Shown here: positions 3,743-53,873 of the stretch, piece after piece
How positions within the stretch are numbered: position 1 is the first letter of the stretch
Layout: the number at the start of each line of letters is the position of its first letter
Virus record (IMG/VR): IMGVR_UViG_3300042880_000509
Origin: a virus
Lineage: Duplodnaviria > Heunggongvirae > Uroviricota > Caudoviricetes
Length of the DNA: 64,000 bases
Strand: one strand, 5' to 3'
The notes under the pieces: model-generated
The model's database searches: none
What the model was told of the DNA's origin: nothing
Seen by the model: the letters and a program-made list of their open reading frames with translations, nothing else
Position numbers and translations under genes: made by a program

Positions 3743-3793
3743 ATAAATAATAAATATAAATTAATATCAAATTGTCTATGATATTGATATTTT

Positions 3794-5436: not shown

Positions 5437-5474
5437 ATTTTTTATTTATACAAAGATAATAAAAAATATGAATC

Positions 5475-6395
5475 CTACATCCTGTCTGAATACATTTCGT
5501 AAAACTTTTCTGGCATTTTTAAATGGTCAAGATTTATAGGTTCTGATTGTCCTTTATTTTCCAATCTTTTTATAAATTCACGGATTCTAGGATAACCGCT
5601 CCAGTTTTGCCATTTTGAAATTATTTTTACATTACTAGGTATTGATTCATACGTTTGTTTTGTTGTTGGGTCAATAAGTCCAACAAAGTCAAAATCATCT
5701 TTAATATGTTTCCAAGCTTGTGTTCCTCCAGCAGAAAAACCACTTACAGATTTTATCTTATAATCATTTATTCCATTTTTAGTTAAAACATTTTTTAAAG
5801 TATCCAATGAATTTTCAAAATTACTATAAACTACATTTCTATCCGAAAAATATTTATCACCACCATTATTTTTCATCCATTTTGCACCATAAGTAGAGCT
5901 AGGATAACCGCCCCAAATAACAGTAATATCATCCGAATCGGGATCGTTCATTTCTATAATATATGTTCCACCATTTATTGTTTTACTTTCTTTTTTTGTT
6001 TCTTGTTTTTTTGGTTCTGATTTTTTATTTTTTTCTTCAGTATCTTTTTCTTCTGTTTTTTTTGAGAGTATTGATTTTAATTTTTCAATATCTTCAGTAT
6101 TCATTGTTCCGGTAACTTCTAGTCCTTCTTCTTCTTGGAATTTTTTTACATTTTTTTCTGTTTCATTTCCGTATTTACCATCAATACCAAATTTACCAAA
6201 ACTATAACCTAATTTATCAAGACCGGCTTGAATTGCAGCAACACCTTTAGTAAATGAGTAATTATTCATTCCTTTTCTATGGATTTCTCCACCGTCAATA
6301 ATTTCATCTAAATCATTTATGTAATCTTCAAATGATTTATTTTCAAGTAATCTTATCAATCTAGAAGTTTGACTTTCAGTTAGTATTATTTTCAT
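5475..6395 (-). CDS. Peptidoglycan-binding domain plus serine hydrolase (alpha/beta, G-F-S-A-G nucleophile elbow) with shared leader
   Basis: PG_binding_1-like GLDKLGYSFGKFGIDGKYGNETEKNVKKFQEEEGLEVTG. Lys/Glu-rich linker. C-terminal domain with GFSAGG (GxSxG). N-terminus MKIILTESQTSRLIRLLE. Confidence 0.65.
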   Translation of the reverse strand: MKIILTESQTSRLIRLLENKSFEDYINDLDEIIDGGEIHRKGMNNYSFTKGVAAIQAGLDKLGYSFGKFGIDGKYGNETEKNVKKFQEEEGLEVTGTMNTEDIEKLKSILSKKTEEKDTEEKNKKSEPKKQETKKESKTINGGTYIIEMNDPDSDDITVIWGGYPSSTYGAKWMKNNGGDKYFSDRNVVYSNFENSLDTLKNVLTKNGINDYKIKSVSGFSAGGTQAWKHIKDDFDFVGLIDPTTKQTYESIPSNVKIISKWQNWSGYPRIREFIKRLENKGQSEPINLDHLKMPEKFYEMYSDRM

Positions 6396-6397
6396 AG

Positions 6398-7936
6398 TTA
6401 TGGTTGCATTATTGTTGAAACATATTCATATGTTTCTTTTGGTAATTTATCTTTAAGGTCTTTAAATGATGTCTTGTTTTTTAATGCGTCAAAATAAACT
6501 TGTTTACCTGACTTTGGTGGGTATTGATACCATGCTCCACTATTATATGCGGCAATAGCAAGATCTAATCTTCCTGGGAATCTTCTAACATTTTCTGACA
6601 TTAGTTTTACATAAGCAGGTAAAGCGTCTTCAACCTTACAAGGATCACCTTTACCATATGAAGGCCAAGTTGTTGGCATAAATTGTGCGATACCTCTTGC
6701 TCCGGCTGTAGATGTATTTTTACAACTTATAACAGATGGTGAAAAAGCAGATTCGGCATATAATTGTCTCATGGCATATTTTATTGGGATTCCACCACTT
6801 TCAACCTCTGATTTAAATTTATTAAAATTAACGCCTTGTATATTTTTAAATTGTTCTTCTAAGTTTGATGGTATACTTCTTATTTTCACACCTGGATTTG
6901 TTATAACAAAAGATGTATTTTCTTCTGAACCACCTGACCCTTTTTTAACATCTTCAATTTGTCTACCAGAATATGTTTTAAATATCTTTTGGGTTAATTT
7001 ATCTTGGGTTTTTAAATCAAAAATTCCACTTTCGTTTAATCCATTATTTTTTTGGAATTTAGTAATTGCAACTTTAGTATTTCCATCAAGAATCCCATTA
7101 ATTTCTATTGAGTTATCTTTTGTTACGATAAACAATATTACTTGCATCATTCTTATTTTTTTGTCAGAACTATTTTGGTCAACAACTTCATTAGTTTTTA
7201 AAAATTCAAAGTATCTTTCAAAAAACTTTTTAAACTTTTCTTTTTTATCGTCATTAGTATTACCAGTTGTTTGGGTTTGGTTTGTCTTTTTTGTTTCTTT
7301 GATATAAGTCTCAACATGATCTTTAATTGTTTTGTGGTTTGATGGTCCTATGTGTATTCCATCTCCTGCCGCCCAATTACCATCACCACTTACCGTTGGT
7401 ATTATAATAGCATTTTTAATTTGTGAAGAAAGATCTTTTTGTAATTGGATCATTCTTTCTCTTCCTTTATACATACAATTTTGATCACAAAGGACTCTAC
7501 CATCTGGATATTTAGTTGGTTTTAAATTCTTATCTGTCATAACAGAACCCGCTTCATATCCTAAAAAAACATAAGCCTGACCACCTTGTTCATTAACAAC
7601 ATCTACCATTTTTTGGATGTTTGTTACGGCATTTGATAAATTGGTTCCTACCCAAAAAGCATCATTTGTTCCGCCGTATATGAATACTTTATCGTATTTT
7701 TTTTCTTTTAGTTTTGGTAACATATTACTCAACATCCAGTCTGTTTTTTTTCCTCCTTCAACAACATGAGTAACATTCCAGTCTGGGTGTGCTTTTGATA
7801 ACAAATAATTCCAGGTTTTTCCTCCGGTACTTAAACTGTCGCCAACAAACATGACATTTTCTTTAACTCTATCGTCATTTTCAGTTATTAAATTAACAAG
7901 AAATTTGAATTGGTTTTCAGAGACAAGTATTTTCAT
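6398..7936 (-). CDS. Three-domain cell-wall enzyme: SGNH/GDSL hydrolase, peptidoglycan-binding domain and SLT lytic transglycosylase, with shared leader
   Basis: FVGDSLS (GDS motif) and GGTND (SGNH block III). PG_binding_1-like VAITKFQKNNGLNESG. C-terminal ES...GARGIAQFMPTTW...AAYNSG (SLT family 1). N-terminus MKILVSENQFKFLVNLITE. Confidence 0.75.
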   Translation of the reverse strand: MKILVSENQFKFLVNLITENDDRVKENVMFVGDSLSTGGKTWNYLLSKAHPDWNVTHVVEGGKKTDWMLSNMLPKLKEKKYDKVFIYGGTNDAFWVGTNLSNAVTNIQKMVDVVNEQGGQAYVFLGYEAGSVMTDKNLKPTKYPDGRVLCDQNCMYKGRERMIQLQKDLSSQIKNAIIIPTVSGDGNWAAGDGIHIGPSNHKTIKDHVETYIKETKKTNQTQTTGNTNDDKKEKFKKFFERYFEFLKTNEVVDQNSSDKKIRMMQVILFIVTKDNSIEINGILDGNTKVAITKFQKNNGLNESGIFDLKTQDKLTQKIFKTYSGRQIEDVKKGSGGSEENTSFVITNPGVKIRSIPSNLEEQFKNIQGVNFNKFKSEVESGGIPIKYAMRQLYAESAFSPSVISCKNTSTAGARGIAQFMPTTWPSYGKGDPCKVEDALPAYVKLMSENVRRFPGRLDLAIAAYNSGAWYQYPPKSGKQVYFDALKNKTSFKDLKDKLPKETYEYVSTIMQP

Positions 7937-8183: not shown

Positions 8184-9034
8184 AGGTTGTTAAAATTTCC
8201 TTTTTTGATTTTTTTATCGTCCAAAATAAAACATTTGTTTTCAACATCAATTTTATAACTTTTGTTTGGAAATGAAATATAATCACCGGTTGTAATATCA
8301 ACCAACATAATGTTTTCAACCTTCATACCAAGATAATTCTTTGGTAGTGGTGTGTTTAATATTAATTTTCCATCTTCTTCTGACATACCAGTTAATTCCT
8401 TTACTTGGAAACTCTTTCCGTTAATCTCCAAATCAATTCCGTGATCTCTATCTTGTTTAGATCCTGGAGGAAAATATTTGATATCGTATTTAGAGTTTTT
8501 TAATTTGTCAATAACATATTTTTCAGTGATACTTCCTTTATTGTAGGTATTCATATTAGCCCTAATAAGTTCTTTTAAAATAGGACCTTCATTTAATAAC
8601 CTTTCTTTATTATCAACTAACCATTTATAAAAATCTTTTGGTGTTTCACCTTTCTTTTCTTTTTTGAATATGTTTAGCAATCTATCTTTAACAAATTTGT
8701 GACCACCAAAATAATTTAAAATTGACCAACTTGTTAGTTCGTTAAGTGGATGTATGTCAATAATACCGCGTTTACTTTTATCTTCGTTCCAATCCAAATT
8801 ATCTTTATAAATTTCAAACAATAATTTATTTAAAAATTTAGCAAACCTACTATTATTTTGGATAAATTCAATATTTAAATTTCCTGGGTTGTTATCTTCT
8901 GAATCCACAATATTAATATAACCTTCTAATGATTTATCATTATTATTTTGATTAAAGTCAATTTCCATTTGATTTTCTGTTAGTCCCATCAAACTCAAAT
9001 TTCTTTTTATTTCGTTAATTATTGTTTTTTCCAT
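8180..9034 (-). CDS. Hypothetical protein (284 aa)
   Basis: Long ORF in coding-like sequence. Start overlaps the upstream gene stop (ATGA), suggesting translational coupling with the paralog array. Confidence 0.55.
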   Translation of the reverse strand: MEKTIINEIKRNLSLMGLTENQMEIDFNQNNNDKSLEGYINIVDSEDNNPGNLNIEFIQNNSRFAKFLNKLLFEIYKDNLDWNEDKSKRGIIDIHPLNELTSWSILNYFGGHKFVKDRLLNIFKKEKKGETPKDFYKWLVDNKERLLNEGPILKELIRANMNTYNKGSITEKYVIDKLKNSKYDIKYFPPGSKQDRDHGIDLEINGKSFQVKELTGMSEEDGKLILNTPLPKNYLGMKVENIMLVDITTGDYISFPNKSYKIDVENKCFILDDKKIKKGNFNNL

Positions 9035-9705
9035 TATTCAAAATTCTCCTCTTTTAATATTATTGGTTCACCTTTTGTAGTATTTCTTTCAACCCATACA
9101 TGATATAAATAACCATTATTATTTTGATTGTATAATTTTAATACTCCGTTACCACCGGCGTCTTCATCCCAACTATCGGTTTCTAATACTTCACTAATCA
9201 TCATTATTACGTCATAAGCAAAAAATCTGGTGTCTTGACGATTTAATTCCTTATTATTATATGTTATTGTACAGTCAAAATTATTTTCGTGTCCAGAATA
9301 ATCAATTATAAGTTCTTCAAGTTCCATATCTTCCATAAATTTTGATAGTGAATAATAGTCTCTTAATTGTCTCCAATCAAATTTCCTATTATCTTTTGAT
9401 TCTGTATATGTAAAATATTTTGGTATTAACATTATTTCTCTTTTTTTTGGATAAACACTAAAATCAACCCAGTATGCTGGTTCGTGTTTATCTGTTCTAT
9501 TATAAAGTTCTTCACCATAATTGGTTAGTATTGAATGAAAAAACTTTTTAAATATATCAATAATTGTAAATCTATGAGTTCTTTCTGTTACCCAATTTTC
9601 AGGAAAATGCTCAATATCACCAATCAACATATCAATATTTGTTCCTATTGGCCCAATTGGATTAAGGTATGCCATTAGTGCTCTAAATGTTCTTTTTTTT
9701 AACAT
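9034..9705 (-). CDS. Tandem-paralog family member 1 (223 aa), most divergent copy
   Basis: N-terminus MLKKRTFRALMAYLNPIG. Shares the YPKK..I and W-x-DAGGNG motifs with the neighbouring copies. Confidence 0.6.
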   Translation of the reverse strand: MLKKRTFRALMAYLNPIGPIGTNIDMLIGDIEHFPENWVTERTHRFTIIDIFKKFFHSILTNYGEELYNRTDKHEPAYWVDFSVYPKKREIMLIPKYFTYTESKDNRKFDWRQLRDYYSLSKFMEDMELEELIIDYSGHENNFDCTITYNNKELNRQDTRFFAYDVIMMISEVLETDSWDEDAGGNGVLKLYNQNNNGYLYHVWVERNTTKGEPIILKEENFE

Positions 9706-9710
9706 ATTAT

Positions 9711-10388
9711 TTAAGGTAAAGAATCTTCTGTTATTTCAATATCAATTTCATTTGAATCATCGTCCTCAGTATTCCACTCGTGATTAACACTTATTTCATC
9801 TTTTGTAAATACAATATTTCCTTGTGATCCTTCATTTATTTCCCAGCCCCCATATTCTTCGAGTAAATCATAGCAAATATGTTCAATATCTTCATCTATT
9901 TGTCCATTCTTATTTTTAGATGTATAATCACTTTCAATGTATCCGGAATCACCACCACCATTATAACTTATAGTCATATCTTCAATTCCTTCGTGTTCTA
10001 AGAATTTTCTTACTTCCATAAATGTAGAATACATACCATCATCTTCTTCATAATCATCAATATATACTTCATATCCACTATCTGATGTGCCGTATGATGT
10101 AAACCTAACTTGGTTAAAAACAATTTTATTTTCAAACGGATAAATCTCTCCATCAACATAAAAATAATCACTTGCACTTTGTACAGAGCCAGGACCTTCA
10201 TCGTATAATTCATTGGTATATAGTTCAAGAATTGTTTGGAGATGTGATTCAAAATTTGATGTAATATCAACACCGTAATAAATATTTATATCTTCAATAT
10301 GAGTTTCACTTATTGTAATTTCAAAAGGTATTGATTCCTTTTTAAACCCTTTCAGGTATGCCATTAACATTTTAAATTTTTTTTTCAT
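9711..10388 (-). CDS. Tandem-paralog family member 2 (225 aa)
   Basis: MKKKFKMLMAYLKGFKK. Contains IYPFENKIVF, NGGGDSGYIES, GGWEINEGSQGNIVF and HEWNTED. Confidence 0.65.
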   Translation of the reverse strand: MKKKFKMLMAYLKGFKKESIPFEITISETHIEDINIYYGVDITSNFESHLQTILELYTNELYDEGPGSVQSASDYFYVDGEIYPFENKIVFNQVRFTSYGTSDSGYEVYIDDYEEDDGMYSTFMEVRKFLEHEGIEDMTISYNGGGDSGYIESDYTSKNKNGQIDEDIEHICYDLLEEYGGWEINEGSQGNIVFTKDEISVNHEWNTEDDDSNEIDIEITEDSLP

Positions 10389-11086
10389 TATTGGTAAGTA
10401 TCTAAATTTATTTCTAATCTCATATCAGTTGGTTCGTAATCTTGATCTTTGGTAAAACCTTTTACAAAAATACTGTCACCCCAAACTATAATGTTTCCTT
10501 CAGCACCGGCTTCCATATTCCAAAACCTACTATTAGTTATTTTTTGCATAAGTTCATTAGTAATCATCCATAAATCTTCACTCATTTGATTGGTAATTTT
10601 AATTAGTTGTCCATCAAGTTCAAGATCGTAAATATGACCATCATCCCAACGACCATAAAAATCAAATTCAAATTTTACTAGGTCTTCATTATCTTCATAA
10701 AATGATAATATTCTTTCTTTACTTTCTTTTGACATATCACCATAATATGTATCATATTTAAATCTTTCTCTATTTTCAACTTTACATGAAGATGTAAAAA
10801 TAATTTTATTTTCAAATGGATGTATTTCAATATTCAAATACCAATATTCGTCAATATCTAAATCAAGATAGTTATAAAAATCATCCATGTGATTTTTAAT
10901 TAATTCTTCTATGAATTTTTCAAAATGTGATGGTAATAATAGTCTTTTTGTATTTCTTTGTTCATTTGTCACATCAAATCTACCCCAATCTTCAATGTGA
11001 GTCCTATCCATTACAATAGAAGTATCAACAAGATGTCCTTTGAGTCCTCTTAAAAAAGCAAAAAATAATTTTAATCTTTGTTTCAT
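10388..11086 (-). CDS. Tandem-paralog family member 3 (232 aa)
   Basis: MKQRLKLFFAFLRGLKG. Contains IHPFENKIIF and WNMEAGAEGNIIVWG. Shares 1 nt with the neighbouring gene. Confidence 0.65.
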   Translation of the reverse strand: MKQRLKLFFAFLRGLKGHLVDTSIVMDRTHIEDWGRFDVTNEQRNTKRLLLPSHFEKFIEELIKNHMDDFYNYLDLDIDEYWYLNIEIHPFENKIIFTSSCKVENRERFKYDTYYGDMSKESKERILSFYEDNEDLVKFEFDFYGRWDDGHIYDLELDGQLIKITNQMSEDLWMITNELMQKITNSRFWNMEAGAEGNIIVWGDSIFVKGFTKDQDYEPTDMRLEINLDTYQ

Positions 11087-11772
11087 TCTTCTATATTGTC
11101 CGGTGTTACATTTATATTCATTTCTGTCATCTCATGATCTTTGGATTTTGTAAAAAATTCCATTCTTATTGATTTATCTTTCTCAACGTAAATTGTACCG
11201 TAACTACCAGGTCCATCAGTCCACCATCTGTCAAGAATATTTGTCATTAATTGATCTGTTAACTCAATATAATTTATATCGTCATTTATAAAAATATAAA
11301 AATCAAGGTTAACATCTATTTGATCATAATTACCATTAAATTCAAAATTAAATTTATCTTTATCTTTTAGATCTTCATTAAATATTGTATCAACTAAATC
11401 AAGAGTAGTTGTTGATAATTGTGTATTTTTTCTATTTAAACTAAATGTTTGTTGGCCATCATATTCGCTTACTATCTCACATTCGCTTTGAAAATTTATT
11501 CTATTTTGTTTTGGGTAAACATATACAAGTAATGTCCACCATTCACTTTCATCATAATCGTTTTCTCTGTGAAACTTTTGCATATATGATTTTAATATGT
11601 CCTCAAATGTCTCTTGTAATTTTGTTGGTAATTCTATTTCTTTACCTTCTTTGGTTGTAAATTTTAAATCCCAACTTTCCATATGGTTATAGTCAAAATT
11701 GATATATGTATCCAATACATCTGTTTTAAATGCTCTAAAATATGCAAGTAATAATTTTAATTTTTGTTTCAT
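11083..11772 (-). CDS. Tandem-paralog family member 4 (229 aa)
   Basis: MKQKLKLLLAYFRAFKT. Contains VYPKQNRINF and WWTDGPGSYGTIYVE. 4-nt overlap with the neighbouring gene. Confidence 0.65.
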   Translation of the reverse strand: MKQKLKLLLAYFRAFKTDVLDTYINFDYNHMESWDLKFTTKEGKEIELPTKLQETFEDILKSYMQKFHRENDYDESEWWTLLVYVYPKQNRINFQSECEIVSEYDGQQTFSLNRKNTQLSTTTLDLVDTIFNEDLKDKDKFNFEFNGNYDQIDVNLDFYIFINDDINYIELTDQLMTNILDRWWTDGPGSYGTIYVEKDKSIRMEFFTKSKDHEMTEMNINVTPDNIEE

Positions 11773-12437
11773 TCTTCCAGGTCATCTTCTTTAATTTCAA
11801 TTGTATCATGACAATCAACCATTTCTCTCATATTCCATTCGTGAGAAATTACAATTTCCAAATTATTATTTAATTCAATTGTTCCGACAGATCCGTCATC
11901 TATCTCCCAACCACCGTAAGCGTTTTCTAGATTATCATAAAGTGTGTTCCAAATTAATTTATTGTCATCACTATCTGAATGCCAGGTAATGTTTGAACTT
12001 TCACCATCAACTGTTATTGAATCGATATCTCCGCTGTCTCCACCACCACTATATCTTGCTTCAATTATTTCAACACCAGTTGTTTTAAAATAATCTTCTA
12101 ATTCTGGGTTTTTTAATTTTCTTTCATAAGTTTCAGCTTGTGATGTATATTCTTCTGCTTTCATTGAAACCACAATTTTTTTATCTTTCGGGTATATGTC
12201 GGCAATTACATTATAGTAATCGCTTTCACTCCAGCAATCTATATCATTTATTTGATCTTCTATTGACTCTAAAATATCAGTAATAAGGTTAACAATATTT
12301 TTAGGTAGTGATTGTATTTCAACACCAAAAGGCCATTGCCATTCAGTATTACCATCATAATTGTTCCATATAACAGATATTTTGTCCTTTTTGAGTTTAG
12401 ACAAAAAAGACATTAACATTCTAAATTTTCTTTTCAT
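11769..12437 (-). CDS. Tandem-paralog family member 5 (222 aa)
   Basis: MKRKFRMLMSFLSKLKK. Contains IYPKDKKIVV, YSGGGDSGDIDS, GGWEIDDGSVGTIEL and SHEWNMRE. 4-nt overlap with the neighbouring gene. Confidence 0.65.
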   Translation of the reverse strand: MKRKFRMLMSFLSKLKKDKISVIWNNYDGNTEWQWPFGVEIQSLPKNIVNLITDILESIEDQINDIDCWSESDYYNVIADIYPKDKKIVVSMKAEEYTSQAETYERKLKNPELEDYFKTTGVEIIEARYSGGGDSGDIDSITVDGESSNITWHSDSDDNKLIWNTLYDNLENAYGGWEIDDGSVGTIELNNNLEIVISHEWNMREMVDCHDTIEIKEDDLEE

Positions 12438-14464: not shown

Positions 14465-14833
14465 TTATATTTGATCTGACAACATAAAATTTAAAAATTT
14501 TCTAATTGTTCTCATAAATTTTTGTCTTTCTGGGTTATTAACATTTTCAGGACCAAAAAACCAATCACCAACCATATCAGTTTCTTCAACTAACATTTCA
14601 ACAATTTTATATTCCATTTGTTTTTTACTATTAAAAGTATTAAAACCAAACCCAGGAAATCCATCAAAAGTATATTCGGTAACACTTAAAGGTTCAAAAT
14701 CTCCAAAATCACCACCGAGGTTTCTTTTATTTTTTTGAACTCTTCTAATTAAAAAATTAAATATACTAGAATCAAACTCCTCGTTTTGTGAGGAGTTTGA
14801 ATCATTGTTATTTTCTCTTATTCTATATCTCAT
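14465..14833 (-). CDS. Hypothetical protein (122 aa)
   Basis: ORF with a 4-nt start/stop overlap with the upstream gene. Confidence 0.5.
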   Translation of the reverse strand: MRYRIRENNNDSNSSQNEEFDSSIFNFLIRRVQKNKRNLGGDFGDFEPLSVTEYTFDGFPGFGFNTFNSKKQMEYKIVEMLVEETDMVGDWFFGPENVNNPERQKFMRTIRKFLNFMLSDQI

Positions 14834-15372
14834 TTAAGAAATCTTAATTTATAGATTGTTGAGTTAATTAGTTCTTGAACTGTATCAATTTGATTTTGAA
14901 TGTAGCTGTCTTCAACAGAATCTCTATTTTCTTCAATTATATCAAGTAGTCTTTCAAAATAAGAAATTGTTTTCTTTCCATTTCTATATTGTTCTACTTT
15001 GAAAGTTTTGAAATTTTTAATAATTCCATACTTTCCTTGGTATGATTCAACAATCCCATCAAACAATGCTACAACCGCATCATAATAACCATTCAACGCA
15101 ATGTGTTCGGCGTAAGATTTTGTTTGTAAGTGAAACACATGAGCCTGATTTCTTGAGTGTAAGATATTACATACCATTTCACAAAAATCATCATTTGATT
15201 CGTTTTCTACATCATCATCCTCTTCCTCTTGATCATCTTCTTCATCATCAATATCTTCTTCATCCCCTTCGTTTTCATCATCTTCAAAATCCTCATCTTC
15301 TTCATCTTCTTCTTCAAAGATGTTTCTTTTTTTGAGTTCTTCATAAAGTTTTTCTGTTAAATTCTTTTCCAT
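14830..15372 (-). CDS. Highly acidic protein (about 50-aa D/E tract) with a structured C-terminal domain
   Basis: EEDEEDEDFEDDENEGDEEDIDDEEDDQEEEDDDVENESNDD followed by a non-repetitive 120-aa C-terminus. Confidence 0.55.
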   Translation of the reverse strand: MEKNLTEKLYEELKKRNIFEEEDEEDEDFEDDENEGDEEDIDDEEDDQEEEDDDVENESNDDFCEMVCNILHSRNQAHVFHLQTKSYAEHIALNGYYDAVVALFDGIVESYQGKYGIIKNFKTFKVEQYRNGKKTISYFERLLDIIEENRDSVEDSYIQNQIDTVQELINSTIYKLRFLK

Positions 15373-16890: not shown

Positions 16891-16981
16891 AACATAAAAA
16901 TAGAATAATTTTACTTTGTAATCAATAAAGAAATTGATCAATTTTAAAATGTGAATATATTTATTAGTTAAAAACATTTAT
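16891..16981. promoter_or_regulatory. Divergent intergenic region (presumed promoters for the 16890 (-) and 16982 (+) genes)
   Basis: About 90-nt AT-rich gap between divergent starts. Confidence 0.3.
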
Positions 16982-17593
16982 ATGAATAGTTGGGTTGAGT
17001 TAGGAGTTGCTTTTACAACAGGTGTGCTGGGTCCTATTTCTGTAATTTTAGTTAAAAATTACATAGATAAGAGAAAGAAAAAACCAGATATGGTTAAAGA
17101 AACTTTAAAAGTTAGTGAATTAATTAATCAAAAAATTGAACATATAAAAGACGAATTTAATGTTGATAGAGTTTGGGTAACCCAATTTCATAATGGTGGT
17201 AACTTCTATCCTACCGGTAAATCAATGGCGAAGTTTTCAGTTATGTATGAATCAGTTAATCCTGGTGTTTCCTCAATTCAAAGTAATTTTCATAATATCC
17301 CAGTTAATTTATTTTCAAAATCAATAAATGAACTTTTACAAAATGACTCAATTGAAATACCTGATTATAAAGATGAGACTATAGGTACGTATGGTTTGAA
17401 ATATATTGCCGAAGAGTCCGGTTGTAAGTCTAGTTACCTTTTTGCAATCAAAACAATTGATGGTAGGTTTATCGGAACATTAGGTCTTGACTATACCAAA
17501 AGAAAAACAAAATTGGATATGGAGTCAATTAACCACCTTATGGTTCATGCGTCATCAATTGGTGGTGTATTAATGACGCATCTTGAACAATAA
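16982..17593 (+). CDS. Hypothetical protein with N-terminal hydrophobic segment (203 aa)
   Basis: ORF. N-terminus GVAFTTGVLGPISVILV is hydrophobic. Confidence 0.55.
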   Translation: MNSWVELGVAFTTGVLGPISVILVKNYIDKRKKKPDMVKETLKVSELINQKIEHIKDEFNVDRVWVTQFHNGGNFYPTGKSMAKFSVMYESVNPGVSSIQSNFHNIPVNLFSKSINELLQNDSIEIPDYKDETIGTYGLKYIAEESGCKSSYLFAIKTIDGRFIGTLGLDYTKRKTKLDMESINHLMVHASSIGGVLMTHLEQ

Positions 17594-17602
17594 GTTATAG
17601 AA

Positions 17603-18208
17603 TTATTTAATATCTGTTGACTCTAATAGAGTGTATGAAAATTTGTTTCCGTGAATTTTAGATGCCTTTTTACATAAAGACATAAATACGTCAAAGTCTT
17701 TTACTCTTTTAAATACCTGACATCCTTCACTCCAATTTTCAACCCATTGTGAATCTTGACCTGCTTTGTGGATGTTAATACCAAAAATACCTGTGTCAGT
17801 TTTTGTTTCTTCAAAAATAAGATCTTTGTTTGCGTCTCTCCAAACAGTTACATTTCCTAATCTCTGACAAAGTGCTTCGTATTTTCCTTGGTGTAAATCA
17901 ATTTTCCACACACCTCTATATTGTCCTGGTACTAACCTTGCAACACCATTTTTATTATGGAATTGTTGAACACCTTTTTTACCTGGGTCACACGTTGCCA
18001 CCCAACAATAGTATTGCCAAACACCTTTTTCATCTTTAAATGATAATGTAAGGTGATCGTCAAATACGTTTGTTACTTTTTTTGCAACTGAAGGTGCGTT
18101 GTTTCTTACTCCTACGATATTCACATCGTAACTTTTGTTTGATGTATCTTCAAACCAAACATAACCTTTGGCTTTTACGGCAGCCTCAACCTGTTCTCTT
18201 GTGTACAT
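17603..18208 (-). CDS. Putative peptidoglycan-active enzyme with YkuD-like (L,D-transpeptidase fold) catalytic motif
   Basis: GINIHKAG...(11 aa)...SEGCQVF fits the YkuD pattern IHGT...S-x-GC-[IV]-[RN], with His then Cys. Weak assignment. Confidence 0.45.
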   Translation of the reverse strand: MYTREQVEAAVKAKGYVWFEDTSNKSYDVNIVGVRNNAPSVAKKVTNVFDDHLTLSFKDEKGVWQYYCWVATCDPGKKGVQQFHNKNGVARLVPGQYRGVWKIDLHQGKYEALCQRLGNVTVWRDANKDLIFEETKTDTGIFGINIHKAGQDSQWVENWSEGCQVFKRVKDFDVFMSLCKKASKIHGNKFSYTLLESTDIK

Positions 18209-18275
18209 AATTTATAATTTTTATTATAAATATATCTTGATTTGAAAAGTAAAGAGTTGGGACATATTTATTAGT
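18209..18275 (+). promoter_or_regulatory. Upstream region of the plus-strand sensor-kinase/lysis operon (presumed promoter)
   Basis: 67-nt AT-rich gap preceding four co-directional, tightly spaced plus-strand genes. No motif called. Confidence 0.3.
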
Positions 18276-19874
18276 ATGATACATTCACGTAAACTAATAT
18301 TATTTTCATCAATATCTTTGATGTTCATATTCCTATTAACTAAAACATTAATTTTATTAAATTTAGTTAGTCCTAGCGACATCACAAGGGTTATTGAAAT
18401 GTTTTGTTTTTTAACATTTTCACCATTATTTTATTTTTTAATGAAAAAACAAAATGTGGACTTGAAAAGTGGTTTATTAAAACAAATTAAAGATAGTGAA
18501 GAATTTATTGATTCCGCAACAATTGTTTCTGTTGCCGATAAGTATGGTAAAATCACATACGTTAATAAAAAATTTGAAGAAGTTTCTGGGTGGTCTTTAG
18601 ATGAGGTTAAAGGTATGGATCATAGTGTTGTTAACTCTGGCTTGCAACCTGATGGGTATTGGGGAAAGATGTATGAGACTGTAATGAAAGGTGAGATATG
18701 GAATGATGTTGTTACAAATAAAGGAAAGTCGGGTGAACTATATTATGTTGATACATACATCAAAGCAAAATTTGATAAGAAGGGTAAGTTAGATGGGTTT
18801 TCATCCATCAGACAAGATGTTACAGAACTTAAAAGAAAAGAAATGGAAATCCGTAATAGAATGAACGCAATAAATAAATCTAATGCTGTTATTGAGTTTG
18901 ATTTAGAAGGAAACATCATTTTTGCTAATGAATTGTTTTTAAATACTATGGGTTATTCTTCGCCGGATGAAGTAATTGGGAAACACCACAGAATTTTTAT
19001 TGATGAAGATCACTTAAAAAGTGAGGAATATTCTATTTTTTGGAAAAAACTAAATGATGGTATATTATTTACTGGTGAAATTACTAGAGTCAAAAAAGAC
19101 GGGTCTTTAGTTTATTTACAAGCAACTTACAACCCAATTATTGGTGTGGATGGTAAGATTTATCGTGTTATGAAAATAGCAACAGACGTAACCAATTCTT
19201 ATGAACAAAAGAAAGAGATAGAAAAGAAAAATACCTATTTAGAACACGCTGCTAAAATATTAAGACACGATATGCACTCTGGTATTAACACATATATGCC
19301 AAGAGGGTTAAGTTCTTTAGAAAGAAGGTTAAGTTCTGAAGATATTACATCGTTAAAGATTGAAGCTCCAATTAGAATGATTAAAGAAGGATTAAAACAT
19401 TCTCAAAAAGTATATAAAGGAGTTTATGAATTTACCAATCTAGTTAAAAAAGATGTTGTTTTAAATAAAACTGAATGTAATTTAAAATCAATTTTATCTG
19501 ATTACCTATCATCAACAGCATATTTAAGTCAAGTAATTATTGAAGACTTACCTACAATAGAAGTAAACGAAGCGTTATTTTGTACCGCAGTTGATAATTT
19601 AATTAGAAACGGTTTAAAATATAACGATTCAGATACCAAATTTGTTAAAATTTATTCCGATGAGAATAATATTTACATACAAGATAACGGTAGAGGAATC
19701 ACACAAGAAGATTTTGATCACTTATCTAAACCATACACAAGAAAAGAAGGGCAAAAAGAATCTGGTACTGGTTTAGGTTTAAATATTTGCGTTGCTATTT
19801 TAGAAGAGCACGGGTTTAATATTACTTGTGAGAAAAATGAAATAGGAACAAAAATGAAAATAAAAATAAAATAA
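18276..19874 (+). CDS. Membrane-anchored sensor histidine kinase with two PAS domains
   Basis: Two N-terminal hydrophobic helices. PAS 1: ATIVSVADKYGKITYVNKKFEEVSGWS...DGFSSIRQDVTE. PAS 2: AVIEFDLEGNIIFANELF...DGKIYRVMKIATDVT. H-box region AAKILRHDMHSG. HATPase_c N-box NLIRNGLKYN, G1 DNGRGI, G2 GTGLGLNI. Confidence 0.8.
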   Translation: MIHSRKLILFSSISLMFIFLLTKTLILLNLVSPSDITRVIEMFCFLTFSPLFYFLMKKQNVDLKSGLLKQIKDSEEFIDSATIVSVADKYGKITYVNKKFEEVSGWSLDEVKGMDHSVVNSGLQPDGYWGKMYETVMKGEIWNDVVTNKGKSGELYYVDTYIKAKFDKKGKLDGFSSIRQDVTELKRKEMEIRNRMNAINKSNAVIEFDLEGNIIFANELFLNTMGYSSPDEVIGKHHRIFIDEDHLKSEEYSIFWKKLNDGILFTGEITRVKKDGSLVYLQATYNPIIGVDGKIYRVMKIATDVTNSYEQKKEIEKKNTYLEHAAKILRHDMHSGINTYMPRGLSSLERRLSSEDITSLKIEAPIRMIKEGLKHSQKVYKGVYEFTNLVKKDVVLNKTECNLKSILSDYLSSTAYLSQVIIEDLPTIEVNEALFCTAVDNLIRNGLKYNDSDTKFVKIYSDENNIYIQDNGRGITQEDFDHLSKPYTRKEGQKESGTGLGLNICVAILEEHGFNITCEKNEIGTKMKIKIK

Positions 19875-19891
19875 AAAACAAAAAAAGAAAA

Positions 19892-20329
19892 ATGATTGAT
19901 TCAATTTTATTGGTGGATGATGAGGATTTATTCCATTTGGTGTTTGAGGATGCTTGTTCGTTATTAGACATAAGTTTGTCTTTAAATGCGTTAAATAGTT
20001 CTGACGAGGCAGCAAAACTATTTCAAAAATGGTTCCAGGATGGTGACAATAATGATAAACCTGAATGTGTGTTTGTTGACTTAAACATAATTGGTAGTTC
20101 TTTTGATGGTATAGAGTTAATTAGAAAAGTTAATTTTGAATATGGTAATCACGTAGTTATTGGTATCATATCATCATCAAACGAACCGGAAGAACAAGCA
20201 AAAGCGCTCCAGGCTGGTGCTCAATTCTGGATTATTAAATCAGATGATATTGAACCTCGTTTAGAAGAGTTCAGAAAAGATTATGATGGGTATAAAAATA
20301 GAACAGCACCATTTAAAGTATATAAATGA
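19892..20329 (+). CDS. Stand-alone response-regulator receiver (REC) domain protein
   Basis: ILLVDDE (acidic pocket), VFVDLNIIG (phospho-acceptor Asp), GIISSS (conserved S/T) and FWIIKS (conserved Lys). No output domain. Confidence 0.75.
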   Translation: MIDSILLVDDEDLFHLVFEDACSLLDISLSLNALNSSDEAAKLFQKWFQDGDNNDKPECVFVDLNIIGSSFDGIELIRKVNFEYGNHVVIGIISSSNEPEEQAKALQAGAQFWIIKSDDIEPRLEEFRKDYDGYKNRTAPFKVYK

Positions 20330-21000
20330 TAAGGTTAGATAAAAATAGTGAAACAGATTTAATTAAACTCTTTGAGTCCAAGAACGTTGGGCTTGAGGGG
20401 AATGTTATTAAATTAATTGAGTCTGATAACGACGAATTTAAAACCTATCTAACTAAATGTACTGATAAAGATAAAGATTCCAGACGTAAACGATTAGAGA
20501 TAACAAAAAAAATACAATTACAAAACAATGAATTATCTGATCTAAACGAACAGAATCAAAAGATGATGGAGGATCTTCAGTCCACACTAAAAGAAGCTGA
20601 AGAACAAAAAGTAAAAATTGAGGCTCAGAATGGTGAGTTAGTCGCTTGGAGAGAAGAGAACGAAAAGATACAACAGGAATTACAAAAGGAGATGATTAAA
20701 TCTGAAAGTGCAAGAATACGTGCCGAAGAAGCAAAGACAAACGCAATCAACGATCTTGACATCCTCCAAAAGAAAAACCAAACGGAATTAATATCAACAA
20801 TTGTAAGGGTTGCCCTTTATATTATTGTTGGTGTTGGTATTGTTACTACCGGAGTATATGTATTCACTATTGTTATGGGTAAAGACACACAAGTTATTAG
20901 TGCCGCTTGGTCAAACATATTTGGTATACTTCTAACAAACGCATTCTCAATTGTGGGAACCATTATGGGTATTAAATACGCAACAGAAAATAAACAATAA
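20326..21000 (+). CDS. Coiled-coil protein with two C-terminal transmembrane helices; possible lysis regulator/holin-like component
   Basis: About 150 aa of heptad-like E/K/Q-rich sequence, then IVRVALYIIVGVGIVTTGVYVFTIVMG and WSNIFGILLTNAFSIVGTIMGI. 4-nt overlap with the REC gene. Lies immediately upstream of the endolysin. Confidence 0.55.
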   Translation: MIRLDKNSETDLIKLFESKNVGLEGNVIKLIESDNDEFKTYLTKCTDKDKDSRRKRLEITKKIQLQNNELSDLNEQNQKMMEDLQSTLKEAEEQKVKIEAQNGELVAWREENEKIQQELQKEMIKSESARIRAEEAKTNAINDLDILQKKNQTELISTIVRVALYIIVGVGIVTTGVYVFTIVMGKDTQVISAAWSNIFGILLTNAFSIVGTIMGIKYATENKQ

Positions 21001-21010
21001 AATAAAAACT

Positions 21011-21835
21011 ATGTTATTAAAAGTAGGATCGAAAGGAGACGATGTAAAAAAACTTCAAGAAAAATTAGGATTAACGGCTGATGGTTCTTTTGGACCTAAA
21101 ACTGAAACGGTGGTAAAAGAATGGCAAACTAAAAACGGATTAACCGCTGATGGTATTGTTGGTGATGGTACTTGGGCTAAAATGTTCGGAACAACTCAAG
21201 TAGTTAAAGAAGATGTTGTGATTACACCAGTTGTAGGACTAAACGTTGAGAAACTAAAAGGTCACATTCCTGATGTTGTTATTGCACAGATAGCGGAAAC
21301 CGCAAAGAAATTTAACATTACAACAAATCTTAGACTTGCTCACTTTTTATCACAATGTGGACATGAGTCAGGAGGATTTAAAGCGGTATCAGAAAATTTA
21401 AACTATTCGGCTGACGGATTAAAAAGAACGTTTGGTAAATACTTTCCTGGTAACTTGGCAGAATCATATGCTAAACAACCAGAAAAGATTGCATCAAGAG
21501 TTTATGCTAACCGTATGAGTAACGGAGATGAAGCGTCAAAAGAGGGTTATAAATTTAGAGGGAGAGGTTATATTCAGTTGACAGGCAAAGGAAACTACAC
21601 AAGTTTTACTAAATTTATTGGTGAAGATTGTGTTGCAAATCCTGATCTTGTTGCTACTAAATACCCATTGGCATCTGCCGCATTTTTCTTTGATTCAAAT
21701 AAACTTTGGTCAATATGTGATAAAGGTGCTGATGATGCTGCGGTAACTGCGGTAACAAAACGAGTAAATGGGGGAACCATAGGACTTGCTGATAGAATCA
21801 AACACTTTAAAGAGTATTATAATTTGTTAAAATAA
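21011..21835 (+). CDS. Endolysin: N-terminal peptidoglycan-binding domain plus GH19 glycoside hydrolase domain
   Basis: PG_binding_1 motif KLQEKLGLTADGSFGPKTETVVKEWQTKNGLTADGIVG. GH19 motifs FLSQCGHESGGF and YKFRGRGYIQLTGKGNY. Start chosen at 21011 (MLLKVGSKGDD). Confidence 0.85.
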   Translation: MLLKVGSKGDDVKKLQEKLGLTADGSFGPKTETVVKEWQTKNGLTADGIVGDGTWAKMFGTTQVVKEDVVITPVVGLNVEKLKGHIPDVVIAQIAETAKKFNITTNLRLAHFLSQCGHESGGFKAVSENLNYSADGLKRTFGKYFPGNLAESYAKQPEKIASRVYANRMSNGDEASKEGYKFRGRGYIQLTGKGNYTSFTKFIGEDCVANPDLVATKYPLASAAFFFDSNKLWSICDKGADDAAVTAVTKRVNGGTIGLADRIKHFKEYYNLLK

Positions 21836-21840
21836 AAAGA

Positions 21841-21868
21841 AAACCCACTTAATCGGTGGGTTTTTTTT
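21841..21868 (+). terminator. Intrinsic terminator after the endolysin (AAACCCAC-TTAATCG-GTGGGTTT plus T8)
   Basis: 8-bp stem followed by TTTTTTTT. Confidence 0.75.
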
Positions 21869-26318: not shown

Positions 26319-27185
26319 CTATTGACATACCCAATTCCAAGTTGGGAAGTTTTTATTTCTTATCCTATCTCTTACACTACTGTCTGGCATATTAAAATAT
26401 TTTGCAGCTTCAACCGCAGAATTAAATAACAAACCATCAATCATACATTTTTTAGCTTGTGGTTTTGGTGGTTCTATCAATGCGTATTTTTCTTTTCTTT
26501 TTTCATTCGCTAATTTTGATATTTCTTTACCACCAATTCTACCTTTTTTCCATCCCTCTTCAATAATTCTTGGATCATCAGGTAATGTCCTTAAATGTTC
26601 TCCTTTATCATTATAAAACCACAACTTATTTTTGTGTGCGATTGACATTTTTTCTTTTGTTTTGTCAGTGTGTCTGTGATCAGAACTTTTTTTTCTTAAT
26701 ATTTTTAGTGTCTCATCTGTATGTTTTTTTCCGTAGAATGAATTTTTTTCACCGCCATATTTACCAATTCTTGATAAACTAATTTTGTTTCTTTGTTCTT
26801 CTGTAAGTTTTTTACCAAAATTTGGATTATTAGTCCCTCTTATACTTTTAGAATAATCTTCCTTTATTAAATCATATAACCTTGAATTTATTTTATGTCT
26901 TTCTTGGTATTCTCTCTTAACATTACACATATTCCATAATGCAAATCTTAATTTTGTGTTTTTAGGGTAAATTTCACATAAAAGTAAATGACAGATGAAA
27001 TGTTCTCTAGCGGTTAAAACAACTAAATTCCAAACATCATTTGACCCCCCAAGACATTTTGGTATGATGTGATGTGTTTCTGTGTATCCAGTGATAGTTC
27101 TATTTTTACCTCTTTCAACAATACTATTATAAATTTTCAAATAATCCATCGGTTTCCGTATATTATATAAATATATGGAAACCAA
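26319..27185 (-). CDS. Freestanding HNH homing endonuclease with NUMOD-like DNA-binding repeats
   Basis: HNH motif ETHHIIPKCLGGSNDVWNLVVLTAREHFICH. Repeated GKK(L/H)T(E/D)E..-K(I/M)S modules (NPNFGKKLTEEQRNKISLS, NSFYGKKHTDETLKILRKK). Likely start at the internal MDYLKIYNS. Confidence 0.8.
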   Translation of the reverse strand: MVSIYLYNIRKPMDYLKIYNSIVERGKNRTITGYTETHHIIPKCLGGSNDVWNLVVLTAREHFICHLLLCEIYPKNTKLRFALWNMCNVKREYQERHKINSRLYDLIKEDYSKSIRGTNNPNFGKKLTEEQRNKISLSRIGKYGGEKNSFYGKKHTDETLKILRKKSSDHRHTDKTKEKMSIAHKNKLWFYNDKGEHLRTLPDDPRIIEEGWKKGRIGGKEISKLANEKRKEKYALIEPPKPQAKKCMIDGLLFNSAVEAAKYFNMPDSSVRDRIRNKNFPTWNWVCQ

Positions 27186-27193
27186 CGAAAAAC

Positions 27194-28024
27194 CTAAATT
27201 GCCAACTCTAATTTTGAATTTATTTTAGTTATACCGTCAATACCGGTAATCTCAAAATCATCAATTGTATAGTCGTAGAAGTTTTTATTTTCCTTTAAAA
27301 TTAACTTTGGTTGTGTGTCTAATGGTTCCTTGTTTAATAGTTCTGAAACACCATCAAAATGTCTATCATATATATGAAGGTTTTGGACTAAATGACAGAA
27401 CTTACCAACTTTATAACCACAATGTCCCGCAACCATCATTTGTAAAGCCAAATATTGCACTTTATTAATATAACCCGCAACCAAATAATCGTTTGATCTT
27501 TGGACCAACGTCATATCCAAAACCTTATCTTTATCAACTTTTCTAACCGAACAGAGTATTTCATAAGCACAAGGAAATAAACCATTTGTTTCTTCTAAAT
27601 CAACATATTGATACATACTAATAATATGCCTTCTACCAAATGGATCATTAACTAATCCATCAAGTAGTTTATTCATCAAATCATATCTTTTGATTGTTGC
27701 ACCATATCTCTGACCAATACTATTATCTCCAATATTCCATTCTTCCCACCAGTTAATACCCATCTCACGAGCAACATCAAGTGATGAAGTTTGTTTTTGG
27801 TATATCCAAAGTATTTCTTTAATTCCGGTTTTAATTGCAGTATTCCTTAATGTTGTAATTGGAAACTCACCTTTTAAAATATCATATTCTTCAAATACCT
27901 GTGTGATAAACTTTGAGTGTGATGGTGTCCCATCCTCGTATTTTGGTCTTGGGTTTTCATCCCAAGAACCTTCTGACATAATCTTTGATAAGTTCTGAAT
28001 ATAATATTTGTCGGCTTTACTCAT
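27194..28024 (-). CDS. thyA: Thymidylate synthase (ThyA; long T4-td-like form)
   Basis: FPITTLRNTAIKTGIKEILWIYQ. RRHIISMYQ...FPCAYE (catalytic Cys). QRSNDYLVAGYINKVQYLALQMMVAGHCGYKVGKFCHLVQNLHIYDRH matches the ThyA C-terminal block. Confidence 0.9.
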   Translation of the reverse strand: MSKADKYYIQNLSKIMSEGSWDENPRPKYEDGTPSHSKFITQVFEEYDILKGEFPITTLRNTAIKTGIKEILWIYQKQTSSLDVAREMGINWWEEWNIGDNSIGQRYGATIKRYDLMNKLLDGLVNDPFGRRHIISMYQYVDLEETNGLFPCAYEILCSVRKVDKDKVLDMTLVQRSNDYLVAGYINKVQYLALQMMVAGHCGYKVGKFCHLVQNLHIYDRHFDGVSELLNKEPLDTQPKLILKENKNFYDYTIDDFEITGIDGITKINSKLELAI

Positions 28025-33857: not shown

Positions 33858-34805
33858 TTATTTAATGTTTAAAAATGTTCCTGATCCACCCGCAACTGTT
33901 GTAGGAAGTTTTCCGTCCCAACTTTGTGCTTTCAAATATTCAACATAAAGAGGAGTTATTTCTTTTTGTTTTAATTTCATTGCCAAGGCCAAAGCTTGTG
34001 CGTCAATTATAACTTTTGCCGAATCACCACGGGCAATCGCGATTTTTTCTTGAGCTTCAGCTTCAGCAACTAACTTACGTTGTGTTGCAGCTTGTGCTTC
34101 CTGGACTGCTTTTGTTTTACCTTCAATTGCCTTTTGAAGAGACTCTGGCGGTGTGATATTAGTTCTTAACTGTGATACTTCAAACCATTTAGATAATCTT
34201 TTATTACACTCAGCAACAATTGCAGCTTCAAATTCTTCACGTTTATTAAAAATTGCATCTACCTCCCACTTATTGGCCACGTCATTCACTGAACTAACAA
34301 TCGCATTCATTAACCATCCTTGTTCAATTTGTTTTATATCCAATCTCAAGTTCTCAAACATATTCCCGATTGCTGTTGGTTTAAGTGAGTAGTTAAAACT
34401 TGGTTTAATTGTTGCTGCGAACCCACCTTTTGTAATTACAGTTTGATCCTTGTATTCAATATGTTGTTGGAATGTTGGAAACTCTAACATCTGTTCAGTC
34501 CAGGTATTATACATTACCCAACCAGTTTTATATTCATAACTTGATACACCTCGTTTGTCTCCAGTCAAATTAACTTTGATTCCAACGTGTCCTGCATCAA
34601 CTCTTTCAAGTGCGAATGGTTGAATACTAGAAATTACAATGCCTAACACAAAGATACCAATTGGTTTGAGTATCCACATTGTGTTAAACATTTGTTTACT
34701 ATCGCCCCATCTGTCTGTTCCTGTTACATACATTCGGTCTCTTGTTGTAAATACCACAAACCCGGCAATTACCAATCCTAAAATAAAAATTAAAGTACTA
34801 ATCAT
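33858..34805 (-). CDS. SPFH/Band-7 (HflK/C-prohibitin-like) membrane protein
   Basis: N-terminal TM helix, then ERVDAGHVGIKVN... and a long Ala/Gln/Glu-rich coiled region (KAVQEAQAATQRKLVAEAEAQEKIAIARGDSAKVIIDAQA) typical of the PHB domain and its C-terminal helix. Confidence 0.75.
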   Translation of the reverse strand: MISTLIFILGLVIAGFVVFTTRDRMYVTGTDRWGDSKQMFNTMWILKPIGIFVLGIVISSIQPFALERVDAGHVGIKVNLTGDKRGVSSYEYKTGWVMYNTWTEQMLEFPTFQQHIEYKDQTVITKGGFAATIKPSFNYSLKPTAIGNMFENLRLDIKQIEQGWLMNAIVSSVNDVANKWEVDAIFNKREEFEAAIVAECNKRLSKWFEVSQLRTNITPPESLQKAIEGKTKAVQEAQAATQRKLVAEAEAQEKIAIARGDSAKVIIDAQALALAMKLKQKEITPLYVEYLKAQSWDGKLPTTVAGGSGTFLNIK

Positions 34806-47077: not shown

Positions 47078-47079
47078 TT

Positions 47080-53847: not shown

Positions 53848-53873
53848 AATAATAAATATAATGGAGTTGTGAT

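Follow-up and report, generated by a model that had tools for sequence, protein, structure and literature searches.

A 64,000-nucleotide (nt) stretch of viral DNA (Caudoviricetes; IMG/VR record IMGVR_UViG_3300042880_000509), referred to at its full length as the window, carries adjacent plus-strand genes for a sensor histidine kinase (HK), a stand-alone receiver (REC), a coiled-coil membrane protein (CCTM) and an endolysin. Comparison with related viral loci identified HK, REC and CCTM as a conserved unit. We consider it moderately probable that the three form one signaling pathway, in which the C-terminal transmembrane (TM) hairpin of CCTM would be the output and the redox or energy state of the cell would modulate the timing of lysis. 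When to lyse is the central life-history choice of a lytic phage and, T4 lysis inhibition aside, is generally attributed to a holin clock that runs autonomously; if a dedicated sensor is coupled to the lysis cassette, phages would instead set the time of lysis by actively monitoring their host's physiology.

The HK-REC-CCTM unit and its fusion counterparts

The initial annotation had placed the four genes close together on the plus strand ahead of a strong terminator, and both points were confirmed. The open reading frames (ORFs) at 18276-19874 (HK), 19892-20329 (REC), 20326-21000 (CCTM) and 21011-21835 (endolysin) are separated by 17, -4 and 10 nt, the negative value being an ATGA overlap of the REC stop with the CCTM start, and JGI gene calls on near-identical contigs agreed on REC, CCTM and the endolysin. 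At the end of the cassette, a hairpin at 21840-21864, with the GC stem AAAACCCAC / GTGGGTTTT and T-runs on both sides, makes a bidirectional intrinsic terminator between the convergent endolysin gene (+) and a 78-amino acid (aa) gene (-). Pfam upheld the annotated domains of HK (two PAS domains and HATPase_c), REC (Response_reg) and the endolysin (PG_binding_1 and Glyco_hydro_19). The genes had further been described as a plus-strand island, and this was borne out in part: the GC skew flips at 18-22 kb, but the upstream gene p203 (16982-17593) also lies on the plus strand.

The four genes had been taken as one operon, and here the comparison led to a different unit. When ORFs were clustered over 80 related viral loci, HK, REC and CCTM (the trio) stood in this order in 76 of the 76 loci reaching far enough, and the REC stop overlapped the CCTM start in 73 of 75 (by 4 nt in 60 and by 1 nt in 13). 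The endolysin gene had no fixed place: it followed the trio directly, lay upstream of it in either divergent or the same orientation, was one to four genes off, or was absent within 8 kb. REC was the most conserved member of the trio across the clade (77-99% identity) and CCTM the least (43-96%).

CCTM (20326-21000, +; 224 aa) comprises an N-terminal element (residues 1-35, with an invariant EGN), a continuous coiled-coil helix and a C-terminal hairpin of two hydrophobic helices (residues 154-221; 20785-20988, +), and it matched no family in Pfam, PHROG or NCBIfam. In an AlphaFold2 model, whose topology is a trivial helix and hairpin (predicted local distance difference test score, pLDDT, 71; predicted template modeling score, pTM, 0.30), residues 36-184 formed a single helix, continuing as coiled coil into the first TM helix (TM1) and followed by a tight turn and the second (TM2). 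TM2 had the invariant pattern W..N..GILLTN.FSI.GTI.G.KY, within which N197, G200, T204, S208, G211 and G215 make an invariant small and polar stripe; this suggests a helix-packing face rather than a mere anchor.

When CCTM was aligned against 185,579 species genomes, eight matches were obtained, all on contigs of metagenome-assembled genomes (MAGs) assigned to eight different phyla, and these were taken to be mis-binned phage. Four of the eight contigs encoded a fusion protein of about 370 aa, in which two PAS domains of the HK PAS2 type and a short coiled coil precede the CCTM hairpin, with the same invariant TM2 sequence (STWSNMFSVLLTNAFSIVGTIMGIKYA); 281 fusion relatives were found in IMG/VR. 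The hairpins of CCTM and of the PAS fusions were about 65% identical, and the hairpin was the best-conserved part across the two architectures. Further, an exhaustive search of 1.84e9 cluster representatives with the hairpin alone gave 98 representatives, which carried the hairpin C-terminally in all cases and were either 130-260 or 360-371 aa long.

The 84 fusion loci (797 kb) contained no REC, no kinase core and no N-terminal domain of CCTM, and the trio loci contained REC and the CCTM N-terminal domain together in 76 of 76. By Rosetta-stone logic, the kinase, REC and the CCTM N-terminal domain would be functionally equivalent to a direct attachment of the PAS domains, from which it follows that the hairpin would be the output and that REC would act on the N-terminus of CCTM. 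The earlier suggestion that the receiver acts on the membrane protein thus gained backing from the 73 of 75 gene overlaps, the strict co-occurrence of REC with the CCTM N-terminal domain, and fusions that bypass kinase and receiver.

REC (19892-20329, +; 145 aa) matched Response_reg (PF00072) at 33.7 bits, above the gathering cutoff of 30.2. Residues D9, D10, D63, S94 and K116 were invariant in 45 distinct sequences, D63 being the phospho-acceptor (codon 20078-20080). The spacing from the phospho-Asp to the Ser and on to the Lys was 31 and 22 residues, close to the 30 and 22 of CheY. The receiver domain was the only one detected in the 145 aa, so REC has no output domain, and its closest natural structures were the single-domain response regulators 3ILH and 4ZYL.

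HK (18276-19874, +; 532 aa) is built of a two-TM anchor, two PAS domains (PAS1 and PAS2) and a DHp-CA kinase core. Its residues 1-55 (18276-18440, +) contain two hydrophobic helices joined by a loop of about 10 residues, which leaves no periplasmic sensor domain. JGI gene calls on near-identical contigs begin HK at an internal ATG. The reading frame and both hydrophobic segments were kept in 30 distinct homologues, with codon position 2 the least variable, and for this reason the anchor is judged to be genuine coding sequence. Across the loci, the input part of HK occurred in the window form (2TM-PAS-PAS), as 2TM-GAF-PAS-PAS (707 aa), in single-PAS forms and, in some lineages, without any TM anchor (GAF-PAS-PAS, 641 aa; PAS-PAS, 475 aa). 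Because several lineages have sensors with no TM segment, it is argued that the sensed signal is cytoplasmic.

PAS1 (residues ~77-190; 18504-18845, +) was of the FAD/redox type by homology, with best PDB matches to the FAD-PAS of MmoS (3EWK, E 1e-22), Aer (8DIK, E 2e-16) and NifL (2GJ3, E 2e-7). It is thus closest to flavin-binding PAS domains and carries their DH..VNSG segment, its motif GMDHSVVNSG paralleling GQDHRIVNSG of MmoS. PAS2 (residues ~204-310; 18885-19205, +) matched Pfam PAS_9/PAS_3, has a GKHH motif and is of the same type as the PAS domains of the fusions, whose best matches were also MmoS, Aer and NifL (3EWK at 1.7e-10). Flavin binding by the HK PAS domains is predicted on these grounds, and a redox or energy state would be the most economical guess for the signal. 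Light, one of the signals originally proposed, was rejected: PAS2 reads GKHHRIFID (residue 235), without the photoactive Cys of the LOV motif GXNCRFLQ, LOV matches were weak, and all PAS domains grouped with MmoS, Aer and NifL.

The DHp-CA core (19206-19868, +) aligned over about 214 residues with HK853 (3DGE), with H331 (RHDMHSG; codon 19266-19268) on the phospho-His. The H-box RHDMHSGINTY was invariant in 64 of 64 distinct ORFs of HK and of a second kinase, HK2. The catalytic domain matched HATPase_c (PF02518) at 59.7 bits and has the N, G1 and G2 boxes (NLIRNGLKYN at residue 441, DNGRG at 470, GTGLGL at 497). No HisKA-family match, including Pfam HisKA (PF00512), was obtained for residues 301-440 even at E<=10; the DHp domain is evidently divergent from the HisKA model, and the kinase status of HK consequently rests on the HK853 alignment. 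Autophosphorylation of H331 and transfer to REC are predicted.

The second kinase HK2, present in many loci, has a signal peptide, an extracytoplasmic coiled-coil region of about 200 aa and an identical H-box, and the gene before it encodes f19, a secreted protein of 205 aa (e.g., L037 7482-11418; L052 8001-11532; L081). HK2 would appear to feed a second signal, from the periplasm, into the same REC.

Linkage to lysis genes

Genes for GH19, GH24 or M15 endolysins, for Phage_holin_4_1, or for p201 (see below) were counted as lysis genes. Among the neighboring families, f70 is a Phage_lysozyme (GH24, 146 bits), f204 a Peptidase_M15_3 (70 bits), and f52 and a homologue in L087 belong to Phage_holin_4_1 (27-28 bits; cutoff 22.2). 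The f36 and f7 proteins form one family of about 85 aa, with two TM helices and charged tails (HHalign probability 98%). The window endolysin itself (21011-21835, +) joins a cell-wall-binding PG_binding_1 domain (PF01471, 50.5 bits) to a Glyco_hydro_19 catalytic domain (GH19; PF00182, 37.5 bits) and matched phrog_181 (E 1e-67).

A lysis gene lay within two genes of the module in 66 of 73 fusion loci (29 of 36 distinct architectures) and in 42 of 64 trio loci (13 of 18 distinct architectures), as compared with 6 lysis genes among 1484 ORFs more than four genes away. Across both versions, the partners comprised four endolysin types, Phage_holin_4_1 and the small 2-TM family. The fusion gene (FUS) occurred in the orders f36-FUS-GH19-holin4_1, f36-FUS-p201-holin4_1-f31, FUS-f36-GH24-p201, GH19-FUS-holin4_1 and p201-FUS-f36, with median gaps of 1 nt from f36 to FUS and 10 nt from FUS to GH19. 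Trio orders included p201(-)|HK-REC-CCTM-GH19, GH19(-)|HK-REC-CCTM and GH24-p201-holin4_1-HK-REC-CCTM, and in L208, from a separate lineage of about 75 kb, HK-REC-CCTM-orf179-f36-M15-holin4_1-370aa stood on one strand with overlapping junctions. This repeated linkage across rearranged architectures and distinct phage lineages supports the functional tie to lysis that had been proposed for the window genes.

Many homologous cassettes consist of f36, one or more endolysins and Phage_holin_4_1 with no sensor. In the closest comparison of this kind, L089 and L190 have the same flank order with 64-93% identity, and the sole difference is the fusion gene between f36 and the endolysin, which L089 has and L190, with f36, GH19 and Phage_holin_4_1, lacks. 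The module is therefore an accessory insertion into cassettes that are complete without it, and the existence of such cassettes favors a modulator (antiholin-like or a trigger) over an essential holin. Module and holin were found in one cassette in the relatives L087, L089, L110, L167 and L208. On large contigs of the window type, Phage_holin_4_1 was seen only in the L012-16 lineage, a weak negative given that the IMG/VR scan was pattern-limited. The window itself has small 2-TM ORFs, of no assignable family, at 34798-35004 and 36536-36802.

Next to HK, and divergent from it, lies p201 (17603-18208, -), which belongs to phrog_3000 and corresponds to the C-terminal half of phrog_33083, a two-domain endolysin containing GH24. 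Relatives carry the domain too (L012 4022-4816; L085 8693-9502), and homologues were fused to PG_binding_1 and placed beside Phage_holin_4_1; p201 is probably a second peptidoglycan-acting, hydrolase-like protein. No Pfam family covers it, although an H..G...SEGCQVF segment is conserved. The plus-strand gene p203 encodes an N-terminal TM helix and a highly conserved domain of about 175 aa, a topology also found in the T4 holin T. It accompanies the endolysin in relatives (orders LYS p203 and LYS FUS p203); its membership in the system is uncertain. Neither Pfam nor PHROG gave a family, and the AlphaFold2 model (pLDDT 44.7) was unusable for judging whether it is a holin.

Two further proteins were noted at cassette ends. 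In the marine-type cassette of L208, the gene immediately after Phage_holin_4_1 (5427-6539) encodes 370 aa that include a long coiled coil and several TM segments; L087 has in this position a protein of 133 aa, which combines a signal peptide with a C-terminal TM helix. The two proteins are candidates for spanin-like components; to our knowledge, no spanins have been described in the hosts of these phages.

Upstream elements and the surrounding window

A conserved bipartite motif was found upstream of HK, consisting of AAAGTAAA[T/G]AGTT, a variable spacer and ATATTTATT 3-4 nt before the ATG. In the window, the distal element AAAGTAAAGAGTT (18246-18258, +), conserved upstream of HK in relatives, has its single exact match in the 64 kb, and the proximal element ATATTTATT (18264-18272, +), conserved there in most loci, ends 3 nt before the HK ATG. 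The core AAGTAAA[ATG]AGT occurred 42 times in 1.18 Mb of trio loci vs. about 10 times in shuffled sequence. Of these sites, 23 lay upstream of HK, 9 upstream of f36 (all 9 of 9 f36 genes) and 3 upstream of the endolysin; the remaining 7 preceded no called gene, those in L017 and L070 marking uncalled HK starts. None was found upstream of the other 1248 genes of the 80 loci. The arrangement of distal and proximal elements likewise preceded f36 in relatives, and the HK unit appears to be co-regulated with lysis genes. In several loci a terminator stands immediately upstream of HK, which indicates that HK opens its own transcription unit.

The proximal element may be a -10-like promoter element or a leaderless-start element. 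It was observed 4-17 nt upstream of four start codons in the window, namely those of the genes at 2168-3742 and 52612-53847, p203 and HK (sites 3749-3757 (-), 53851-53859 (-), 16957-16965 (+) and 18264-18272 (+)), while its total of 8 sites in the window is no more than chance would give (6.9 expected). The trio loci that diverge most (L073, L074 and L077) have, in place of the AAAGTAAATAGTT motif, a perfect palindrome, GTGGACTATTTATA...TATAATAGTCCAC, some 60-100 nt upstream of HK, which may serve as an operator or form a hairpin. A scan for sigma-70 promoters gave fewer sites than in shuffles and was uninformative.

Complete two-component systems had been called rare in phages, and this holds for deposited genomes: neither REC nor CCTM had a homologue in 50,697 deposited phage genomes, and a survey of jumbo phages mentions only a divergent NAD-linked REC, never paired with kinases (PMC7824862). 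On metagenomic viral contigs, by contrast, the system is abundant, with at least 110 HK relatives in IMG/VR on contigs of up to 304 kb. A DNA-level search of deposited phages gave no similar or near-identical genome. With moderate confidence, the phages bearing the trio are large, infect Bacteroidota and come from lakes, since a CHU_C protein, the endolysin relatives, A-rich leaders and the MAG bins all point this way. In detail, the nearest cultured relatives of the window endolysin are Flavobacterium and Cellulophaga phages, the leaders of the four genes read directly as A-rich and without a Shine-Dalgarno sequence, and the MAG bins holding such contigs include Saprospira and Flavobacteriales. 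The CHU_C protein belongs to family f25 (L041 4357-6564 and relatives), whose members of about 735 aa have PKD-like repeats and a C-terminal CHU_C sorting domain for type IX secretion; this suggests a Bacteroidota host whose type IX secretion system the phage exploits.

The window has 29% GC and densely packed small ORFs, with genes for RNA ligase, thymidylate synthase, a homing endonuclease, two DNA methyltransferases and families known only from PHROG; neither structural genes nor tRNAs were found within its 64 kb. The two methyltransferases (phrog_67, E 1e-69 and 1e-71) are paralogues on either side of the RNA ligase (phrog_968; 44942-48305, -), and the homing endonuclease (phrog_655) directly adjoins thymidylate synthase (26319-28024, -), whose neighborhood is a classic location of mobile endonucleases. 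A second set of cell-wall-active proteins is encoded at 5475-7936 (-), comprising a 306-aa protein with PG-binding-like matches and a 512-aa protein, the C-terminus of which matches lytic domains of virion-associated and endolysin PHROGs (phrog_669, phrog_342) and which may be an entry lysin. At 9034-12437 (-), five genes of 222-232 aa overlap one another in a tandem array; two or more of them are paralogues by clustering, and the corresponding JGI genes have faint or weak DUF6878 matches. The gene at 14830-15372 (-) encodes a 180-aa protein with an extremely acidic N-terminal half, rich in runs of E and D, and JGI assigns DUF5856 to its counterpart in L216. A few genes from the trio, L059 (14083-15945) and 17 other loci carry family f9, of about 620 aa, which reads, as judged by eye only, as a full-length DnaK/Hsp70 chaperone with the motif GIDLGTTNS.

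Pathway model, alternative readings and known systems

In the proposed pathway, HK would be anchored in the inner membrane by its two-TM hairpin, and its cytoplasmic PAS domains, of the Aer/NifL/MmoS FAD type, would sense the redox or energy state that prevails in the host during infection. HK would autophosphorylate on H331 and pass the phosphoryl group to D63 of REC. Phosphorylated REC would then bind the N-terminal cytoplasmic element of CCTM, which translational coupling would keep in step with REC, and the change would pass along a continuous helix of about 150 residues into TM1 and repack the invariant TM1/TM2 hairpin. Within the membrane the hairpin would act on the machinery of lysis, most likely by restraining the holin in the manner of an antiholin or by triggering it, so that lysis by the GH19 endolysin, together with p201, would be advanced or delayed with the host energy state. 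In sister phages, the steps from sensing to REC would be collapsed into the single PAS-PAS-coiled coil-hairpin protein. Within this scheme we infer the binding of flavin, the identity of the signal, the contact of REC with CCTM, and the effect on lysis with its direction.

More broadly, and as a tentative proposal that we rate a little short of probable, the two versions may represent a new class of lysis-clock regulators in uncultured phages, in which a sensor-coupled hairpin, in one-component form or as a His-Asp phosphorelay, would gate lysis post-translationally by the respiratory or energy state of the host. The phosphorelay form sometimes has the second, periplasm-sensing kinase, and envelope events are possibly measured as well.

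Several observations weigh against a modulator of lysis. No homology of the hairpin to holins, to antiholins or to the membrane proteins that co-occur with it could be detected, and HHalign comparisons with f36, f7, Phage_holin_4_1, f31, f24 and f17 were negative (probability <3%). About one-third of the trio loci have no recognized lysis gene within three genes, and the borders of lysis cassettes are known insertion sites of accessory genes, so adjacency alone could mislead. In the window, the surroundings consist of nucleotide-metabolism and accessory genes with no evident late region, and tblastn and profile searches of the 64 kb found no known holin family, so that a partner of CCTM was not located. 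This last result also favors the reading that CCTM, or the fusion, is itself a signal-gated holin, whose hairpin would oligomerize and release the endolysin on falling host energy. With its two TM helices encoded 10 nt before the endolysin gene, CCTM takes the classic position of a holin in the window, and the small and polar stripe of TM2 may, in our view, be likened to glycine-zipper pinholins. Assignment of the hairpin to a known holin family was rejected, as its best match, Phage_holin_9, scored 15.6 bits against a cutoff of 27, which leaves a sub-threshold hint and no significant homology to any described holin family. Further, many fusion and trio loci also hold a bona fide Phage_holin_4_1 and/or an f36/f7 2-TM protein, and the closely related cassettes lacking the module argue that it is not the essential holin there. 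We thus regard a holin role of CCTM as unlikely, though in the window itself CCTM may be the holin.

The trio loci without nearby lysis genes, together with the accessory status of the module, would also fit a host-physiology or signaling 'moron', engaged in cross-talk with the host or aimed at a host membrane complex, for which the lysis cassette is merely a preferred insertion site. The invariance of TM2 despite varying holin-like neighbors agrees with a conserved host target, and accessory metabolic genes abound in this part of the window. However, the fusions dispense with kinase and receiver, so cross-talk with host regulators is not the conserved function; the module recurs at many cassette positions, with four endolysin types, in separate lineages and with junctions of 1-10 nt; and a private motif is common to the module, f36 and the endolysin. 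This explanation is accordingly held to be improbable. The least probable explanation, to which we give very little credence, is a sensor of superinfection, competition or envelope damage that would impose lysis inhibition or exclusion through the hairpin, as in T4 lysis inhibition (LIN). HK2, with its extracytoplasmic domain, and f19 speak for it, as HK2 has the same H-box and probably feeds the same REC, and T4 RI is a periplasmic antiholin sensor (PMC8385771). Against it, the window HK has only the 10-residue loop in place of a periplasmic domain, and several lineages have fully cytoplasmic sensors (the 475- and 641-aa HK forms and the fusions).

If the pathway of HK, REC and CCTM is real, it would be the first case of a phosphorelay, encoded by a phage, whose output is directed at lysis and bypasses transcription, and CCTM would be a new effector family for single-domain response regulators. 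As the system is abundant in lake viromes (hundreds of contigs), it could influence when cells of natural Bacteroidota populations burst and release their carbon. Cassettes that have the sensor and cassettes that lack it, 80-90% identical, provide a natural experiment, and the module could serve synthetic biology as a compact redox-gated membrane switch.

No description of a phage lysis module gated by a two-component system or by PAS domains was found in full-text literature searches, and the nearest known systems differ in informative ways. In T4 LIN, the holin T is controlled by the antiholins RI, a periplasmic sensor, and RIII, which is cytoplasmic (PMC8385771, PMC6832632). Similar to the proposed pathway, accessory proteins of a large lytic phage there link a sensed condition to holin triggering, post-translationally and at the membrane. 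However, they bind directly, with no kinase, receiver or PAS domain and no sequence or domain similarity to the module, and they respond to superinfection, whereas the signal here is probably cytoplasmic redox or energy state and the holin partner is only proposed. The lambda S105/S107 and P1 LydA/LydB pairs (PMC9025707) are likewise membrane proteins encoded in the lysis cassette, which determine the time of lysis and react to the energized state of the membrane, but these antiholins are small and have neither sensor domains nor a phosphorelay, while CCTM, with 224 aa and a long cytoplasmic helix, is unrelated to them in sequence.

Among bacterial systems, the two-component system LytSR controls the holin- and antiholin-like genes lrgAB/cidAB in Staphylococcus and Streptococcus (PMC8805020, PMC6997555) and so is also tied to holin/antiholin-type membrane proteins and to the energized state of the membrane. 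It acts transcriptionally, through the LytTR DNA-binding domain of LytR; REC has no DNA-binding domain, and the phage-encoded link from receiver to membrane protein proposed here would be a direct one. In Yersinia entomophaga, a response-regulator-type, PhoB-like protein governs a holin-endolysin cassette (PMC10101115), but this is transcriptional control of a chromosomal secretion system of the bacterium, not a phage-encoded post-translational relay.

On the input side, Aer, NifL and MmoS (8DIK, 2GJ3, 3EWK) are the closest solved relatives of PAS1 and the fusion PAS domains (E 1e-22 to 1e-5), and Aer resembles HK in being cytoplasmic yet membrane-anchored. Their outputs are chemotaxis, inhibition of NifA and MmoQ, in contrast to the REC/CCTM hairpin, and flavin binding here is a prediction. 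On the output side, REC resembles the single-domain regulators of the CheY-FliM and DivK type, since it is receiver-only with a full phospho-acceptor pocket and its output is necessarily a protein-protein contact; the proposed target differs in being a coiled-coil membrane protein of a new kind, whose gene overlaps that of REC, a pairing for which no description was found in the literature searched. Compared with all these systems, HK, REC, the PAS domains and the endolysin are ordinary, and the novelty lies in the effector family, in how it is wired, and in its having matching one- and two-component forms.

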